From the UHGV virus genome UHGV-2105699: 46,955 nucleotides of DNA. The stretch is one strand, 5' to 3'. Both the position numbers and the translations under genes were made by a program. Shown in pieces: positions 32,522 to 37,487 of the stretch (its first letter is position 1; each line of letters starts with the position of its first letter). The notes below the pieces were generated by a model. The model made no database searches. It was not told where the DNA came from and saw only the letters and a list, made by a program, of their open reading frames with translations. This stretch comes from a virus.

Positions 32522-32930
32522 CAAGCCCAAAATAGAATAACGTCGCCCTTTTTAACTCCTCAAGACCATAAGAAATGGCGCCAAAGTGACCCTCTGCAAT
32601 GGCGCACTCCAGAACCTCAATCTGCGATGGCGATACTTTTGATTTTGTCTTATCACGCCTCTTCAGCTCAATCAGGCCGCATTTATGATTAATGCCGTGA
32701 GTTAGTATCACATTGTCGCTTACTCCGCTCCTGACGCCCATTTTGCGGCGTTTCTCGACGAATTGAGGGCCGCTCTTTGTTCCAGTCTCGTTAGGCACAT
32801 GAAACCACAGGACTTCAGGGAATCGGTATTGCATCCACAGACCATAGGCCATCTGGTCAGTTTCCTCCCTTGGACACTCCCCGCGATAACCACTATCAAA
32901 TACCCATATTCCACTATCAAGCTGCTTCAA
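32514..32930 (-). CDS. VRR-NUC domain nuclease
   Basis: 138 aa with VRR-NUC-type core (GVSDNVILTHG...GLIELKRRDKTKSKVSPSQIEVLEC). Confidence 0.6.
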   Translation of the reverse strand: MKQLDSGIWVFDSGYRGECPREETDQMAYGLWMQYRFPEVLWFHVPNETGTKSGPQFVEKRRKMGVRSGVSDNVILTHGINHKCGLIELKRRDKTKSKVSPSQIEVLECAIAEGHFGAISYGLEELKRATLFYFGLDE

Positions 32931-33451
32931 TTTGTTCTCCTACCGTGGTTTTTATGGAATCCATGCTTAACCTCAGCTTCCGCTCTTGCTTTTGCCGCAT
33001 TATTAAAATCAACAAATAATCCAAGATAAATGTTTTTACCTTTGACTTTTATTTGAGCCATCCATTTCTTCCTGTCTGAGTTCCATGTCACACCAGTAAC
33101 TCCAGAGGAGTTATTGGTTGCGATACCTTGATTCATGCCATTCCCAAGATTATTAACTAGCCTGAGATTTTCTATTCGATTATCATCACGAACATGATTG
33201 ATGTGATCAATCTGCATACCTCCTTGTATTGGCTCGTTATGCATTTCCCATATGATTCTATGTGCACGATAAAGACCCCTGCCAATTCTGACCATTACAT
33301 AACCAAACCTTGGGCGCTTGTTGCCTGCCGCTTTATATGCAAACCTAGTATTCCAAGTAGCTGCTGACTTCTTCGTCTTAAAAGTTGAAACATTTCTCTC
33401 CTTCCATATCAGAAGGCCATTTTCATAGTAAAAATAATCATGCCAGTTCAT
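32927..33451 (-). CDS. HNH homing endonuclease with AP2 domain (copy 3 of 3)
   Basis: YRAHRIIWEMHNEP...IDHINHVRDDNRIENLRLVNN and AP2-like SGVTGVTWNSDRKKWMAQIKVKGKNIYLGLFVDFNNAAKARAEAE; ~80% nt identity to copy 1 over the HNH core. Confidence 0.8.
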   Translation of the reverse strand: MNWHDYFYYENGLLIWKERNVSTFKTKKSAATWNTRFAYKAAGNKRPRFGYVMVRIGRGLYRAHRIIWEMHNEPIQGGMQIDHINHVRDDNRIENLRLVNNLGNGMNQGIATNNSSGVTGVTWNSDRKKWMAQIKVKGKNIYLGLFVDFNNAAKARAEAEVKHGFHKNHGRRTN

Positions 33452-35069
33452 TTTTTTGTCCGAATTCTTTTCTGTGGATGATATCGCGGCCTTTATCGTT
33501 AAAACGATGCGTTATGCGTTTTGGCGCGCGGATAAGACCAGTGAACGCCATGAATGCTTTTGCGTTGTGGCAATTCATGAGGTTATCAATCATATTCCTG
33601 TCTGATACGTGGTTTAGTAATCCTTTAATCTTAAACTGATTTTTAAGGTACTTCTCCTGCCTGCCAAATGGATAGAAAACCTCACTGGCCCAGCCATCTT
33701 TGCCGTTTTCTTTCGTGATGAAGTAACGATAAACAACGCCCTTCTCATCTTTCGTTAGCTCAATCTTGAAATCCTTGACTTCAGTCCATTCATTATCCGT
33801 ATAAGCACGCTCATTGAGAGCCGCGTTAGGGTCGCGCAAAACGTGATCGCATTGACGGCAATAACGAGCTGTCGGGTCGTTTTTTGTGCCGCAACCATCA
33901 TCAAAAATACGGATGCCGTGCTTGTCGAAACCGCAGCGAATGAAGCTGAAAAACTCTTCGCAACGACCATCTGGCGACGTTGAGTCTTTACCGATGCAAC
34001 GCCGTGCATATGGGCTGTTCATCGTCTGGCATTTAGGGCATGGAACCTGCTCTCCGCTACGCTTGGCGCGCTGCGCTTCTGCTTCCTCAAGAATAGGGTC
34101 TTCGTAGAGTTGGCCAAGCTCAAACATTGTTCCCGAGAAATCGAGAACCAGATGATCTTCTTTATGATACCCGGCTTCTATGTGTTCTTTTTTAAGTAGT
34201 CGCATACCCCTGCCCAATAATTGGACAAGAAGAGTTAACGACATTATTTTCCTTAGTATGACGCTTACATCCCACAAAGGTATGTTTACACCTGTTGTTA
34301 ACGCCGCAATTTGGAATGTGTATTTTATTTTTCCAGTGTAGGCATCTTTTAGAGCCTTCCGGCGAGCTTTCATGCCCATATCTTCAGTTACTATCGCATA
34401 GCTTCCTTCTGGTAAATATTTAGCGGCTTCCAAGCAATGCTTTTTCCCGGCACATGTAATCAATACCCCGTTCCTGTTTTTGGTCAACTCCATAACCTTG
34501 AGCATGATTTTCTGTGTAAGCGTACCTTGCTCAAGGATTTCTTTCTGCATCTGCTTTAGTTGTTCGGCAGTGAAATCCTGTGTGCCATCGCTTCCTGATG
34601 CCTCAAATGCTGACAGATCGTAATGCAAATCATCAATGTCATGCAGGCCAAAAATCGTCGGCACAAGAAACCCAATATCAACAAGATATTTGGTGTCAAT
34701 GTTTACTATTTCATGTTTCCAGTAAGCACCCTTAATCGAGTCTGTGCCACGAAAGGGACTGCCTGTATATCCAATAACGATGACATCGTGACCGTATTTA
34801 GCCTTACATCTGCGGTTAAGTTCAGTCATTATTACGCCATATTGCGTTTCAGGACTTTCGCTTACCACGTCCTCCCAGTTCATCTGGTGGCAGTTATGAG
34901 CTATGAATCCGTTTGCAACAAAGTTGTGATGGGTAGGCATCTCTATATCCCACACCATCTCATCACCAATTTCATTTATTGACTCGATTACTTTTGATTT
35001 TGTATTCCACGCCATCTTCCATGTGGTCAGCAATTCTTTTAAAAAACTCATCCTGCGCTTCCTCATCAA
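33438..35069 (-). CDS. helicase C-terminal fragment carrying an N-terminal intein C-half (IntC) - C-extein begins CHQMNW (DECH motif II), contains motif VI QLLGRGMR and a C-terminal multi-Cys zinc-finger region
   Basis: ORF begins (TTG 35069 / ATG 35066 / ATG 35048 with SD GAGGAAG) with ...KVIESINEIGDEMVWDIEMPTHHNFVANGFIAHN|C = intein blocks F and G followed by +1 Cys; same reading frame as the N fragment (36518-35069 = 1449 = 3x483). Confidence 0.6.
   Translation of the reverse strand: MMRKRRMSFLKELLTTWKMAWNTKSKVIESINEIGDEMVWDIEMPTHHNFVANGFIAHNCHQMNWEDVVSESPETQYGVIMTELNRRCKAKYGHDVIVIGYTGSPFRGTDSIKGAYWKHEIVNIDTKYLVDIGFLVPTIFGLHDIDDLHYDLSAFEASGSDGTQDFTAEQLKQMQKEILEQGTLTQKIMLKVMELTKNRNGVLITCAGKKHCLEAAKYLPEGSYAIVTEDMGMKARRKALKDAYTGKIKYTFQIAALTTGVNIPLWDVSVILRKIMSLTLLVQLLGRGMRLLKKEHIEAGYHKEDHLVLDFSGTMFELGQLYEDPILEEAEAQRAKRSGEQVPCPKCQTMNSPYARRCIGKDSTSPDGRCEEFFSFIRCGFDKHGIRIFDDGCGTKNDPTARYCRQCDHVLRDPNAALNERAYTDNEWTEVKDFKIELTKDEKGVVYRYFITKENGKDGWASEVFYPFGRQEKYLKNQFKIKGLLNHVSDRNMIDNLMNCHNAKAFMAFTGLIRAPKRITHRFNDKGRDIIHRKEFGQKNELA
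34893..35015 (-). other. intein C-terminal half (about 41 aa: MAWNTKSKVIESINEIGDEMVWDIEMPTHHNFVANGFIAHN), blocks F/G
   Basis: Classic HNF..NG...HN terminal motif immediately followed by Cys (34892-34890); length and pattern comparable to naturally split IntC halves. Confidence 0.6.
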
Positions 35070-35841
35070 AAATACTTACACAAAACATTTCGCGCTTTTT
35101 CGTTCCGCCAATGTAAGAATTAACTCGCGCTCCATTTAACCCAAGAAAATCATTCAATGCATTGGCAACTTCCCAGCATTCATCCTCAATGAACGCCTCG
35201 GTGTGAATAAATACCTGCCTGTACTTGCCGTAAGATATTGATGAATGCCCATCATCACCAAAATAAACAGCCCAACCAACTTCGTTTAACTCCCTGCATA
35301 TCTTTCCTATGTTGTACCCATTTGCTGAGTCGCCATATTTCTCAGCGTACCTGTCAAGTATCTTTGTGCATGATGTTCTAACCTGGAACCATTTGTCACC
35401 GAATCCATGATTATCCCTTTCGCTGTATGCTGCATTAAGTTTTTTGAATCTTGCGGCCTTGCACAGAGCGTGTTCTTTATTTCCCATATTCCACATCAGT
35501 CTGTGCGTTCCCCTTTTTGTGTTCTTAATCAGACACCCATCACCAGCAAGAGCGGCGAGTATGTTTTGATGCAAGAAGTAATCAATAACAAGGCCGCTAT
35601 CAACCGTTGAATTATGATGACCAGACCTAAAATCAACATAGTAACCGTAAGGATTTTCCAGCAATGCACTCAATCCTTTGCTCGCGTGCGGAAAAACCTT
35701 CTCGCCACAGCCACACTTGCACGAAGGAGCTTTGTCATAAATCTGTCCGACGAGCCATCTAACGACAGAGTCATCCCAGCCTTTAGTTTTCCCGCTTCTA
35801 CCCAGCAGCCGTTTGAATAAAGTTTGTGTGTACTCGTGCAT
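34972..35841 (-). CDS. LAGLIDADG-type homing endonuclease ORF lying between/overlapping the two intein halves, in the -1 frame relative to them
   Basis: Two LAGLIDADG-like motifs (NILAALAGDGCLIKN and GWAVYFGDDGHSSISY); ATG 35841 preceded by strong SD GGAGAGGAAATAAAATG; overlaps IntN ORF by 172 nt and IntC ORF by ~95 nt. Confidence 0.55.
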   Translation of the reverse strand: MHEYTQTLFKRLLGRSGKTKGWDDSVVRWLVGQIYDKAPSCKCGCGEKVFPHASKGLSALLENPYGYYVDFRSGHHNSTVDSGLVIDYFLHQNILAALAGDGCLIKNTKRGTHRLMWNMGNKEHALCKAARFKKLNAAYSERDNHGFGDKWFQVRTSCTKILDRYAEKYGDSANGYNIGKICRELNEVGWAVYFGDDGHSSISYGKYRQVFIHTEAFIEDECWEVANALNDFLGLNGARVNSYIGGTKKREMFCVSIFDEEAQDEFFKRIADHMEDGVEYKIKSNRVNK

Positions 35842-36518
35842 TTTATTTCCTCTCCGCCTTTTAATTTAACTGATGATACGCGTTTTATGCCATTAGTAAA
35901 TACTCTTTTAGGTTTGTGGTACACCCACTCACCAGCGACCTCATCCAAGCACTTGATTTCTTTGTTTATTAAGCTATCGTCATCAATTCTCACCCATCCA
36001 TCACTCGTCAATATCAGTGCATCACCAGTCAGGCACTCATCCATAAGAACAAAGCGAGGAGAAAAATCGGAAAGCGCACCTTTAGAAAGTAAATTACCTG
36101 ACTCGTCCTTCTTATCGAAAAGGCCATTTATTATTGTTCCCTCCGTACCAGCAATAAGCGGGTATGCCGTTGACTTTCTGCCAAGAGCAGCGCTAAAAAG
36201 TGAGTTTTTCACACTCAGATTCCACAGTTCCTCCGCATCCTGCTCAATAATTTCTGGCTGTCTTGCAATAACAAGCCCTTCCCACCCCATATCCTGAAAG
36301 CGCCGCGCAATCATGGCAATCATGATCGTCTTACCAGCACCTACCGATGCGGTAACGAAACTTGGCTTAGGGTCTTTGCCAAACTTGCGGATAACTTCAG
36401 CCGTCTTTTCATAAACCAGCCATTGATAAGGTCGTGGCTCAATCTCACCCGTATTAACAACTGACCGCAATTTGTCTATATCCAGCTCCGCAATCATTGC
36501 GTCTATTTTATGCGTCAT
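35670..36518 (-). CDS. helicase N-terminal fragment (Walker A ASVGAGKT; motif II LMDE) fused to intein N-half
   Basis: 161 extein residues ending VLMDE, then intein block A; ORF terminates 121 aa later. Joining exteins reconstitutes DECH-box motif II (VLMDE + CHQ). Confidence 0.6.
   Translation of the reverse strand: MTHKIDAMIAELDIDKLRSVVNTGEIEPRPYQWLVYEKTAEVIRKFGKDPKPSFVTASVGAGKTIMIAMIARRFQDMGWEGLVIARQPEIIEQDAEELWNLSVKNSLFSAALGRKSTAYPLIAGTEGTIINGLFDKKDESGNLLSKGALSDFSPRFVLMDECLTGDALILTSDGWVRIDDDSLINKEIKCLDEVAGEWVYHKPKRVFTNGIKRVSSVKLKGGEEIKCTSTHKLYSNGCWVEAGKLKAGMTLSLDGSSDRFMTKLLRASVAVARRFFRTRAKD
35673..36035 (-). other. intein N-terminal half (about 121 aa) beginning CLTGDALILTSDGWVRI (block A) with block B IKCTSTHKLY
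   Basis: Cys1 codon at 36035-36033 directly after extein residues FVLMDE; TxxH block B; ends at its own stop codon (35672-35670). Confidence 0.6.
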
Positions 36519-36536
36519 AGCAACTAACCTTTGTTG

Positions 36537-36585
36537 ATGTTTCTACGTCAGTTAGCTTATACTCAATCTACACCAACAATCAAGG
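36537..36585. promoter_or_regulatory. divergent promoter region between helicase (leftward) and primase (rightward): TTTCTACGTCA (36541-36550) and TCAATCTACACCAACAATCAAGGG (36563-36585)
   Basis: Same two-copy arrangement as 15010-15056; leftward reading gives TTGATT-N16-TATAAG followed by TGACGTAGAAACA leader. Confidence 0.4.
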
Positions 36586-36592
36586 GTCAATT

Positions 36593-37487
36593 TATGAGAT
36601 ACGACTGGAAGGAAATCGAGCCAAAAATGATCGGCAACTGGCAGGCTGCCATCATGTCTATCGTCAATGTGGATAGCAGAGTTTTCAATGGCAAGCACCA
36701 ACCATGCCCATCATGCTCAGGAAAAGACAGATATCGCTTTGATGACAACTTCGAAACAAAAGGCGATGGCGGTGCGATATGCAATCAGTGCGGTTCCGGC
36801 AGCGGCATGAACTGGCTGATGAAACTTTCTGGCATGAACTTCCCCGAAGCGCTGGAGGCGCTGGGAGGATTTCTGAATATGCACCCACGCGAAAAACTTG
36901 AGGCGATTAGAAAGCAACTTCCAAAGGTCAACCATGCTTCTGACTACCTGACAGAGGCAGAAGTGGCGACCATCATGGAAAAAGCAGGAGGCGACACCAT
37001 AACCGGCAAAACTGGTGAACTGGTGGCGATACCGCTCTATATGGCTGGAACCATGACGCCATGCAATGTAGCTTTTCTGGCAGACGATGAAAGCGTGTCA
37101 TTTCGCGCGGGTTTTAGCCATGAGTACACTCGTGGAAGACTTACGCGCGGCGCGGTGACACCCATCGGCGATAAGACAGAATGGACATACCTTGTTGCGG
37201 ATTACTTCGATGCCTGGCGAGCACACCGACTTACCGGTGCTCATGTGTGGTGCTGCTGGTCGTCGGAAAATATGTGGGAAGTTGTGCGTGATGTGAGCGA
37301 TGAGCAGCGAGCCAAACTACGCTGTATCATTAATAATAATTTCGATGAGGTATGCGCAGCCGAGAATGCAGGTCTTCAGATACTAATTACTGATGACGGG
37401 CGGGATATTCGTTACAGTGGCGCCATCAGAAAAAGGTTGTATAAACCAGAAGAGCTATTTGAAGCACTAAAAAACAAACCCTCCTGA
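36593..37487 (+). CDS. putative DNA primase (zinc-ribbon plus TOPRIM-like region)
   Basis: Start at MRYDWKE (36593). CPSCSGKDRYRFDD...GGAICNQCGSGSGMNWL zinc-binding element typical of phage/plasmid primases; ILITDDGRD acidic cluster. Confidence 0.5.

Follow-up and report, generated by a model that had tools for sequence, protein, structure and literature searches.

A superfamily 2 (SF2) DECH helicase gene in the virus genome UHGV-2105699 is interrupted within motif II by an element in which the two halves of an intein lie on separate open reading frames (ORFs), and a homing-endonuclease gene is written between and over them in another frame. The DNA that we examined, referred to here as the window, is the whole stretch of 46,955 nt from this UHGV virus genome, a Skatevirus-like siphophage genome of ~47 kb near to Klebsiella and Salmonella phages. 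All features of the locus are on the minus strand. The locus shows the properties by which Dassa, London, Stoddard, Schueler-Furman and Pietrokovski (2009; PMC2677866) defined fractured genes, which they described at gp41, NrdA/J, IMPDH, DnaE, ligase and terminase loci in Global Ocean Sampling (GOS) metagenomes. We consider it highly probable that this is a fractured helicase gene, that is, a composite mobile element inserted at DE|CH whose intein halves would restore the helicase by protein trans-splicing.

A first-pass annotation made from the sequence alone had proposed a class-1 intein at DE|CH with its N-half and C-half on two separate same-frame ORFs, and every test that we ran backs this proposal. 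It was also right that the halves are separated by stops, but it had overlooked that these 600 nt are also covered by a LAGLIDADG ORF of 289 aa (35841..34972). The presence of this free-standing gene between and over the halves reclassifies the locus as a fractured gene rather than a bare split intein, and would explain both why the intein is split and how the element moves.

Removal in silico of the element (36035..34893) gives a spliced product of 645 aa. This product is 95% identical to the helicase of Salmonella phage Seszw_1 (QAY00252), which has no intein, and the two align without gaps. Around the junction the product reads FVLMDECHQMNW where Seszw_1 has YILIDECHQMNW, and over a longer stretch ...FVLMDECHQMNWEDVV... 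is aligned with ...YILIDECHQMNWEDVV...; joining the exteins thus restores the DECH motif II with Cys+1, as had been predicted. The PHROG DNA helicase profile phrog_16 is covered from 263 to 385 by the N-terminal ORF and from 385 to 762 by the C-terminal one (3.8e-52), and is therefore continuous at position 385. The first-pass annotation had allowed for a second, intact helicase elsewhere. A tblastn search with the spliced product finds one helicase locus only, where residues 1-162 give a 100% match at the N-extein, and no second helicase of this type is present elsewhere in the window. Neither extein shows any decay.

Three overlapping genes and two intein halves

The features of the locus are listed below, with IntN and IntC denoting the N- and C-terminal intein halves.

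36518..35670 (minus): N-ORF, 282 aa, comprising the N-terminal part of the helicase (161 aa) and IntN (121 aa)
36036..36518 (minus): N-extein of an SF2 (ResIII/DEAH-type) helicase, 161 aa from its N-terminus, containing Walker A ASVGAGKT and ending at VLMDE of motif II (Pfam ResIII, 9.4e-8)
35673..36035 (minus): IntN, 121 aa, with Cys1, block A CLTGD, block B T67-x-x-H70 and N4
36035..35748 (minus): splicing core of IntN, residues 1-96
35837..35826 (minus): block B T67 and H70
35673-35747 (minus): basic tail of IntN, residues 97-121 (25 aa), a +1-frame shadow of the endonuclease CxCGCG motif
35672..35670 (minus): TGA stop of the N-ORF
35849..35855 (minus): strong Shine-Dalgarno (SD) sequence GGAGAGG of the endonuclease gene, 7 nt before its ATG, in the intein codons G-G-E-E just upstream of block B
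34972..35841 (minus): homing-endonuclease ORF, 289 aa, I-SceI-like LAGLIDADG_2, in the -1 frame relative to both intein halves
35721..35704, 35550..35536, 35262..35248 and 35010..34996 (minus): endonuclease motifs CKCGCG, LAGDG, FGDDG and the C-terminal VEYKI, respectively
35061..35064 (minus): SD sequence GAGG of the C-half, 9 nt before ATG 35051; both SD and ATG are within the endonuclease codons D-E-E-A-Q-D-E
35051..33438 (minus): C-half ORF, 537 aa, comprising IntC and the C-extein (the stop-to-stop listing runs from TTG 35069)
34893..35051 (minus): IntC, 53 aa, head and core
residues 1-19 of IntC (minus): IntC head, MSFLKELLTTWKMAWNTKS, a shadow of the endonuclease C-terminus
34994..34893 (minus): IntC core, residues 20-53 (34 aa), with block F VWDIEMPTHHNF, block G IAHN, His52 and Asn53
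33438..34892 (minus): C-extein, Cys+1 (34892..34890) followed by 483 aa of helicase (484 aa in total) and the stop codon

IntN starts with CLTGDALILTSDGWVRI (block A), its block B reads KCTSTHKLY and its N4 strand WVEAGKLKAGMTL, while the C-half ORF carries KVIESINEIGDEMVWDIEMPTHHNFVANGFIAHN and then directly CHQMNW. The C-extein matches Pfam Helicase_C (3.3e-7) and contains motif VI, QLLGRGMR, as well as a Cys-rich zinc-ribbon tail (weak zinc-ribbon matches). The extents of the N- and C-terminal ORFs, the helicase motifs and blocks A/B and F/G were re-read at the positions reported earlier and agree, as does the common frame of the two ORFs, whose starts are 1449 nt apart when the C-terminal one is counted from 35069. 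An SD sequence and ATG belonging to IntC itself had also been recognised, and the GAGG at 35064-35061 bears this out; the ATG after it, which is the most credible start, is however at 35051-35049 and not at 35048, a shift of 3 nt. Counted from ATG 35051, IntC is 53 aa long rather than the ~41 aa first given, the latter being the length from the next ATG, 35015, which has no SD spacing.

The element is 1143 nt long, a multiple of 3, and is placed between the Glu and Cys codons of motif II. The endonuclease gene is written in a different frame, and the intein frame consequently meets stops, namely the TGA at 35672..35670 and seven further in-frame stops across the interval, and the locus encodes three proteins of 282, 289 and 537 aa. 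There is no single open frame through the N-splicing region, the endonuclease and the C-splicing region, as there is in a canonical contiguous intein. The endonuclease ORF shares 172 nt with the N-ORF and 80 nt with the C-half ORF.

Comparison of the halves with intein databases, as the first-pass annotation had recommended, places them on the same profile: the N-half corresponds to positions 39-89 of Pfam Intein_splicing, and the C-half to 102-155 of 155 (IntC, 2.8e-7). IntN alone matches the Spl (Spirulina) DnaX mini-intein (Protein Data Bank (PDB) 7cfv) at E=2.7e-11. When residues 1-96 of IntN and 20-53 of IntC are joined, the alignment extends over residues 3-137 of the 137 in 7cfv with 35% identity (E=4.4e-21). 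The joined cores also align end to end with the Npu DnaB intein, with the IntC core falling on the C-termini of 7cfv and the DnaB mini-intein 4o1r, and relative to 7cfv all HINT elements are present across the two cores together.

Modelled in AlphaFold2 (AF2) from an alignment that comprised 26 contiguous relatives, the joined cores are predicted to form a complete HINT fold with a mean predicted local distance difference test (pLDDT) score of 91.1 and a predicted template modelling (pTM) score of 0.84. Confidence is low only near the join (residue block 91-100) and in the C-terminal extein residues. In a Foldseek search the model gave template modelling (TM) scores of 0.83-0.85 to 7cfv, 1mi8 and 4o1r, and of 0.81 to two naturally split inteins, Npu DnaE and NrdJ-1. 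A single-sequence AF2 prediction of full IntN with full IntC was unusable (pLDDT 35) and was replaced by the alignment-based model. Since the two halves align and model as one complete HINT intein, the split site is that of the canonical endonuclease-insertion loop.

Cys1, G4, T67 and H70 are invariant across 15-27 aligned relatives, and the penultimate His, terminal Asn and Cys+1 are invariant in every alignment (VWDIEMPTHHNF...IAHN|C); DIEMP, HNF and AHN are invariant in the IntC of the split family. Cys1 in block A, T-x-x-H, blocks F and G with His-Asn and Cys+1, and a precise insertion relative to intein-less alleles identify a class-1 intein. The stop after IntN and the separate IntC start, both conserved in 9/9 of the loci that we tabulated, identify a naturally split one.

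The same observations bear on whether the halves still splice. They might have become a non-covalent dimerisation module only, or the helicase might be dead in this phage. Non-covalent assembly is documented for Aeh1 NrdA, the gene of which is split by a homing endonuclease (PMC3045599), and peptide-bond formation is here only predicted from the sequence. However, the residues which serve the chemistry alone are precisely the invariant ones (Cys1, T67, H70, the penultimate His, the terminal Asn and Cys+1), the break is inside the DECH catalytic motif of the only helicase of that type in the window, and the exteins retain 95% amino acid identity with intact relatives. A loss of splicing therefore appears unlikely to us, and protein trans-splicing much the better account.

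The overprinted tail of IntN has a net charge of +6 and the IntC core (34893-34994) one of -5. This polarity, with a basic IntN tail and an acidic IntC, is the reverse of that in DnaE split inteins. To judge from the residues, the opposite charges could aid capture of one half by the other.

Recurrence of the arrangement and selection on its frames

The same three-ORF layout with the same -1 offset is found in at least 15 independent loci. The carriers are Escherichia phages AN_ECEAS and ES, Pectobacterium phages Ymer, Abuela, Koroua, Sabo and Amona, two IMG/VR contigs, three Logan contigs, other viral and metagenome contigs, and one Pantoea whole-genome shotgun (WGS) scaffold. Among 50,697 phage records, relatives of the element occur in 7, across three unrelated phage groups. 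When 1.84 billion representatives were searched exhaustively by phmmer, the N-ORF as query gave about 20 clusters (50% identity) of N-halves of 236-313 aa, with alignments that run almost to its last residue. The eight cluster members that were fetched are N-terminal parts of helicases, with identity down to 32%, which stop shortly after N4 and end in a tail ...LLRASxAVxK.... The arrangement is hence less rare than the first-pass annotation had supposed, being present in at least 7 GenBank phage genomes, at least 15 loci and about 20 clusters, and fractured genes have been known since 2009 (PMC2677866).

We tabulated nine loci in detail and saw the split layout in eight more. Over the nine, the element measures 1140-1161 nt, always a multiple of 3, and its intein frame contains 6-13 stops. 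The overlap between N-ORF and endonuclease is 157-178 nt and that between endonuclease and C-half 68-101 nt. Both internal ATGs are present in 9/9, most with an SD-like sequence upstream, and the ATG of the C-half is within the last 68-101 nt of the endonuclease gene. For the endonuclease start in particular an SD-like sequence is found in 9/9. Across the loci, the endonucleases are between 97% and 37% identical to that of the window.

These data speak directly to the possibility of a sequencing or assembly artefact, in which a contiguous intein with an in-frame LAGLIDADG domain has been broken by one or two indel errors, a case that the first-pass annotation had raised against its own proposal. 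Two compensating indels could leave the halves in the same frame and the element length a multiple of 3, as is observed. In contrast, the 8 stops in the window are spread over the whole interval rather than being one, and the same frame structure with 6-13 stops recurs in every relative, in at least 15 independently sequenced loci that reach down to 37% endonuclease identity. Furthermore, about 20 N-half clusters terminate at one common point, an SD and ATG of its own are conserved for the endonuclease, and different frames are constrained in different segments. We give the artefact virtually no credence, and indel errors of this kind are excluded as the origin of a gene fractured by a split intein.

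Measures of substitution show that the N-half, the endonuclease and the C-half are all under purifying selection. In the IntN core outside the overlap, comparison of the window with either of two close relatives, loci L005 and L006, gives 14 synonymous and 5-6 non-synonymous changes and a ratio of non-synonymous to synonymous rates (dN/dS) of 0.07-0.09; for the endonuclease core the same close pairs give 0.12-0.19. In the IntC core of distant pairs the proportion of synonymous differences (pS) is saturated at 0.77-1.2, with a proportion of non-synonymous differences (pN) of 0.13-0.24. Each overlap has one constrained and one unconstrained frame. Between block B and N4 it is the intein frame which is held (dN/dS 0.2-0.4, versus 0.8-1.1 for the endonuclease frame). 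Beyond N4, as far as the stop of the N-ORF, a comparison of the window with AN_ECEAS shows 11 synonymous and 6 non-synonymous changes in the endonuclease frame and 1.5 and 14.5 in the intein frame.

Given that it is the endonuclease frame that is constrained in this last segment, the final ~25 residues of IntN, DRFMTKLLRASVAVARRFFRTRAKD, are a shadow of the endonuclease APSCKCGCGEKV motif. The conserved LLRASxAVxK of the tail may be purely such a shadow of CxCGCG, or may have been co-opted for association of the halves. At the other end, the conserved MAWNTKS of the IntC head reads as a shadow of the endonuclease HMxxG(V/M)EYKI.

The frames could in principle be connected during translation, by programmed frameshifting of -1 in the overlap of N-ORF and endonuclease and of +1 in that of endonuclease and C-half, so as to yield one cis-splicing precursor. 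A GGGAAAA heptamer in the N frame of the first overlap, and a T6 run (GAG TTT TTT AAA) at the start of the second, are suitable sequences. They are present, however, in only 5/9 loci each, and a ribosome that shifted at GGGAAAA would lose the conserved N4 strand (KLKAGMTLSLDG), on which purifying selection acts in the N frame. Two shifts of opposite sign would be required, and both downstream ORFs have their own initiation signals. Frameshifting is in our estimation very improbable, and three separately initiated proteins fit the locus better.

Some relatives carry a contiguous intein at the same DE|CH site. In Xanthomonas phage FoX3 gp40 (MT161383; locus L010, 2450-4816) and in the metagenome locus L027 the intein frame is open, and a LAGLIDADG ORF lies in the same -1 frame as in the window. 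The intein has no stops and contains ~230 aa of low-complexity 'junk' in frame; the LAGLIDADG ORF of FoX3 is 252 aa long (L010 2881-3639). The ORF in L027 is 1301 aa long, with two inteins apparent. Loci L031 (501-2945 / 1003-1647) and L032 (501-3287 / 1099-1821) have a contiguous intein at this site which is overprinted by a +1-frame ORF of 214-240 aa, and this ORF looks DUF559/Vsr-like by eye only. P0083 is a plain mini-intein at the DE|CH site.

Base composition was considered as the cause of the split or contiguous state and was ruled out by comparing L031 (GC 0.40, no intein-frame stops) with L007 (GC 0.49, split, 8 stops). As GC content has no explanatory power, the open frame in the contiguous relatives appears to be selected rather than accidental. 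The local sequence at which the cyanobacterial DnaX inteins (P0068, P0072 and 7cfv) are inserted, IDE|CHMLS, is identical and belongs to the Walker-B motif of another P-loop ATPase, a hint that inteins may once have switched targets among P-loop NTPases, from DnaX to SF2 helicases or the reverse.

The endonuclease on the Pantoea scaffold mentioned above (locus L029; Pantoea eucrina, NZ_JAOBTT010000004, 11.3 kb) is 95% identical, the three ORFs are laid out in the same way, and the scaffold probably represents phage DNA in a bacterial assembly. In GenBank, ORFs of this family are variously labelled "hypothetical protein", "homing endonuclease", "DNA helicase" and even "minor tail protein". In Escherichia phage ES (OR466728 30811-31961) the features under the match are 'hypothetical protein' and 'minor tail protein', and in AN_ECEAS (PP944860 26012-29146) the N-half is a 'hypothetical protein' and the endonuclease ORF has no annotation. 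Annotation pipelines thus split and mislabel this essential helicase.

The endonuclease, empty sites and the proposed mechanism

The endonuclease has two acidic-residue LAGLIDADG motifs in one chain (LAGD101G and FGDD197G), contained in the segments ILAALAGDGCL and WAVYFGDDGH. G100, D101, D196, D197 and G198 (GDG and DDG) are invariant in seven relatives, including that of FoX3. Against Pfam LAGLIDADG_2 (PF03161) the window protein scores 22.7 bits (E=1.1e-4), below the 25-bit cut-off, whereas 7/7 of the aligned relatives match PF03161 at E<=0.01, the best at 9e-22. The window protein also matches phrog_11023 (7.3e-8). A profile of the family finds I-SceI (1r7m) at E=1.7e-5 over residues 27-224 of 235, and 6x1j over the whole fold at 1.1e-8; the C-terminal HMxxG(V/M)EYKI aligns to the C-terminal ...MKYKL of the latter, an I-SceI-family structure. 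In a collection of 5.8 billion proteins 14/14 homologues are 167-294 aa long, from which it follows that the endonuclease is a stand-alone protein and not a domain of a long intein. Its start region is less structured than shuffled controls (z=+2.5).

The element is absent from all 164 phage records with a megablast-detectable copy of the helicase. Six empty alleles were read, five of them from Skatevirus/Deseoctovirus (Seszw_1, CECAV_048, C1, BUCT_XGG_PSM_3377 and EI_sp1). At the insertion point the empty allele reads ...CCTCGCTATATCCTTATTGAYGAA|TGCCACCAGATGAACTGG...; the five intein-less alleles have ...CGCTATATCCTTATTGAYGAA|TGCCAC..., and the alleles with the intein in this helicase background (window, L005 and L006) ...CGYTTTGTTCTTATGGATGAG|element|TGCCAC.... 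Directly upstream of the insertion the two kinds of allele are distinguished by one feature:

36036..36056 (minus): substitution tract of 21 nt, with 5-6 differences common to the alleles with the intein and absent from the empty ones

The differences include a synonymous GAA>GAG. The 45 nt downstream of the insertion are identical save for one substitution in locus L014, and the surroundings are 96-100% identical. A short co-conversion tract left by homing would look like this one-sided run of 21 nt.

We propose the following course of events for a fractured, trans-spliced helicase gene. One transcript would be translated by independent initiation at 36518, 35841 and 35051. IntN and IntC would associate into the HINT fold, the Cys1 thioester would be passed to Cys+1, Asn53 would cyclise with help from His52, and an S-N shift would follow. 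Protein trans-splicing in this manner would free the 645-aa helicase with its DECH box intact. The putative endonuclease would cut the helicase gene of co-infecting relatives that lack the intein, near ...ATTGAYGAA|TGCCAC..., and the whole 1143-nt unit would be copied in by double-strand-break repair.

Several points weigh against this interpretation of the locus. We infer trans-splicing, the activity and site recognition of the endonuclease and the start codons used from the sequence. The structure model is an artificial fusion, predicted with an alignment of contiguous inteins. The score of the window endonuclease is below the Pfam cut-off, and its assignment to the family depends on the relatives and the match of the I-SceI profile. 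The 21-nt cluster could instead have arisen as extein residues -3 to -6 adapted to splicing. No promoter or terminator signal tells the three ORFs apart: promoter-like sites in the locus are not above the shuffled expectation, and terminator-like sites number 6 against 2.8±1.6 expected, of which the gene strand has within the element only one weak stem, of 5 pairs. Finally, no hairpin was found at the start of either the endonuclease or the C-half ORF, and the regulatory hairpins seen by Dassa et al. upstream of fractured-gene endonucleases are absent here.

A more far-reaching interpretation, which we put forward only tentatively and hold to be rather doubtful in its entirety, is that the element is an interlocked and long-lived mobile unit of three genes and not a decaying intein. 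It combines five propositions: that the endonuclease SD and ATG are written in the conserved block-B codons of the intein; that the start of the C-half is written in conserved C-terminal codons of the endonuclease; that the basic tail of IntN (+6) may have acquired a role in capturing the acidic core of IntC (-5); that selection maintains the split across a large clade of SF2-helicase inteins, with N-exteins down to ~32% identity; and that the split clade coexists with contiguous sister lineages which keep the shadow frame open.

Relation to known systems and neighbouring genes

A fractured gene with a split intein is a known arrangement; what is new here is the LAGLIDADG_2 endonuclease, the double and longer overprinted overlaps, the SF2 helicase as host and the occurrence in cultured phages. 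We found no publication that describes this element in open-access papers and bioRxiv, and an earlier report elsewhere is possible. To our knowledge, earlier descriptions of fractured genes all come from marine and freshwater metagenome reads and involve GIY-YIG or Vsr-like endonucleases. Nor do we know of any test in a living system of the model in which split inteins originate by invasion of an intein by a free-standing endonuclease gene.

What the locus shares with those of Dassa et al. is a replication or repair gene interrupted in place by a split intein, an endonuclease gene whose 3' end overlaps the start of the IntC ORF and supplies the start codon, and a split at the canonical endonuclease-insertion loop. 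The differences are nevertheless considerable. Their endonucleases are GIY-YIG or Vsr-like and never LAGLIDADG (PMC2677866), whereas that of the window is I-SceI-like LAGLIDADG_2. Their overlaps are of 6-69 bp and at the 3' end only, in place of 172 nt at IntN together with 80 nt at the 3' end. In the window the endonuclease SD and ATG are in or near intein block B, so that each gene has initiation signals within conserved codons of the other. Theirs have an RNA hairpin upstream of the endonuclease start and the window has none, the host protein in the window is an SF2 DECH helicase broken at motif II, and the carriers are cultured Enterobacterales phages rather than metagenome reads.

Non-canonical inteins form a second point of comparison. 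Gosselin, Arsenault and Gogarten (2025; bioRxiv 10.1101/2025.01.02.630785) described out-of-frame or antisense endonuclease genes inside contiguous actinophage inteins, and Gorbalenya (1998), as cited, a non-canonical intein with an endonuclease gene in another frame or strand. As in the window, the endonuclease is in the intein insertion region but outside the intein frame, which has been read as invasion by a free-standing gene. These inteins are, however, contiguous and cis-splicing with an open frame, unlike the frame here, which is closed by stops (6-13 in the family). Furthermore, the out-of-frame type of Gosselin et al. is endonuclease VII-like and their LAGLIDADG cases are antisense, whereas the LAGLIDADG gene of the window is on the sense strand in the -1 frame.

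The closest solved relatives of the splicing domain are the cyanobacterial DnaX (7cfv) and DnaB (1mi8, 4o1r) mini-inteins, which differ in being contiguous, in residing in a clamp-loader ATPase or the DnaB helicase, and in being bacterial and not phage-borne. The split inteins in use as tools (Npu/Ssp DnaE, gp41-1, NrdJ-1 and Aes123 PolB1) have the same canonical split position and a similar fold (TM 0.77-0.81), and DnaE, gp41-1 and NrdJ-1 are likewise class-1 with Cys1 and Cys+1, the latter two coming from fractured phage genes. Identity to these tool inteins is only 20-25%, and they differ from the window, with its 25-aa basic tail on IntN and 19-aa head on IntC that are both overprinted by the endonuclease gene. 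The halves of DnaE are at separate loci and have no endonuclease.

The carriers, which comprise the Klebsiella/Salmonella-type siphophage of the window, coliphages AN_ECEAS and ES, and the Pectobacterium phages of the Ymer group, offer a tractable natural system. A paper of 2024 noted that inteins had not been reported in coliphages (PMC11162368). Because the element occurs in plaque-forming coliphages and Pectobacterium phages, it would, if the tentative interpretation as an interlocked unit is true, be the first genetically tractable natural system in which to watch a fractured gene home and trans-splice. The family further provides new mesophilic Cys1/Cys+1 split inteins for protein ligation, with many diverged and possibly orthogonal members, and a putative new I-SceI-like endonuclease with a predictable target of ~20-40 bp. 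Contiguous and split sister lineages at one insertion site make up a natural series for the transition from cis to trans.

Two neighbouring ORFs are of note. On the minus strand at 32927-33451 of the window, a free-standing ORF of 174 aa and of homing-endonuclease type matches HNH_3 (2.6e-17) and phrog_99 (8.7e-60), with a weak match to an AP2 domain. Its first 14 nt overlap the 3' end of the helicase C-ORF, a position at which Seszw_1 has no room for such a gene; the helicase is thus flanked by a second mobile nuclease gene. On the plus strand at 36531-37487 of the window, a divergent ORF of 318 aa, which carries a primase zinc-ribbon (Zn_Ribbon_Prim, 3.9e-12), begins at a distance of 13 nt from the ATG of the helicase, and the helicase and this primase-type ORF are two replication genes with a very short common divergent control region.

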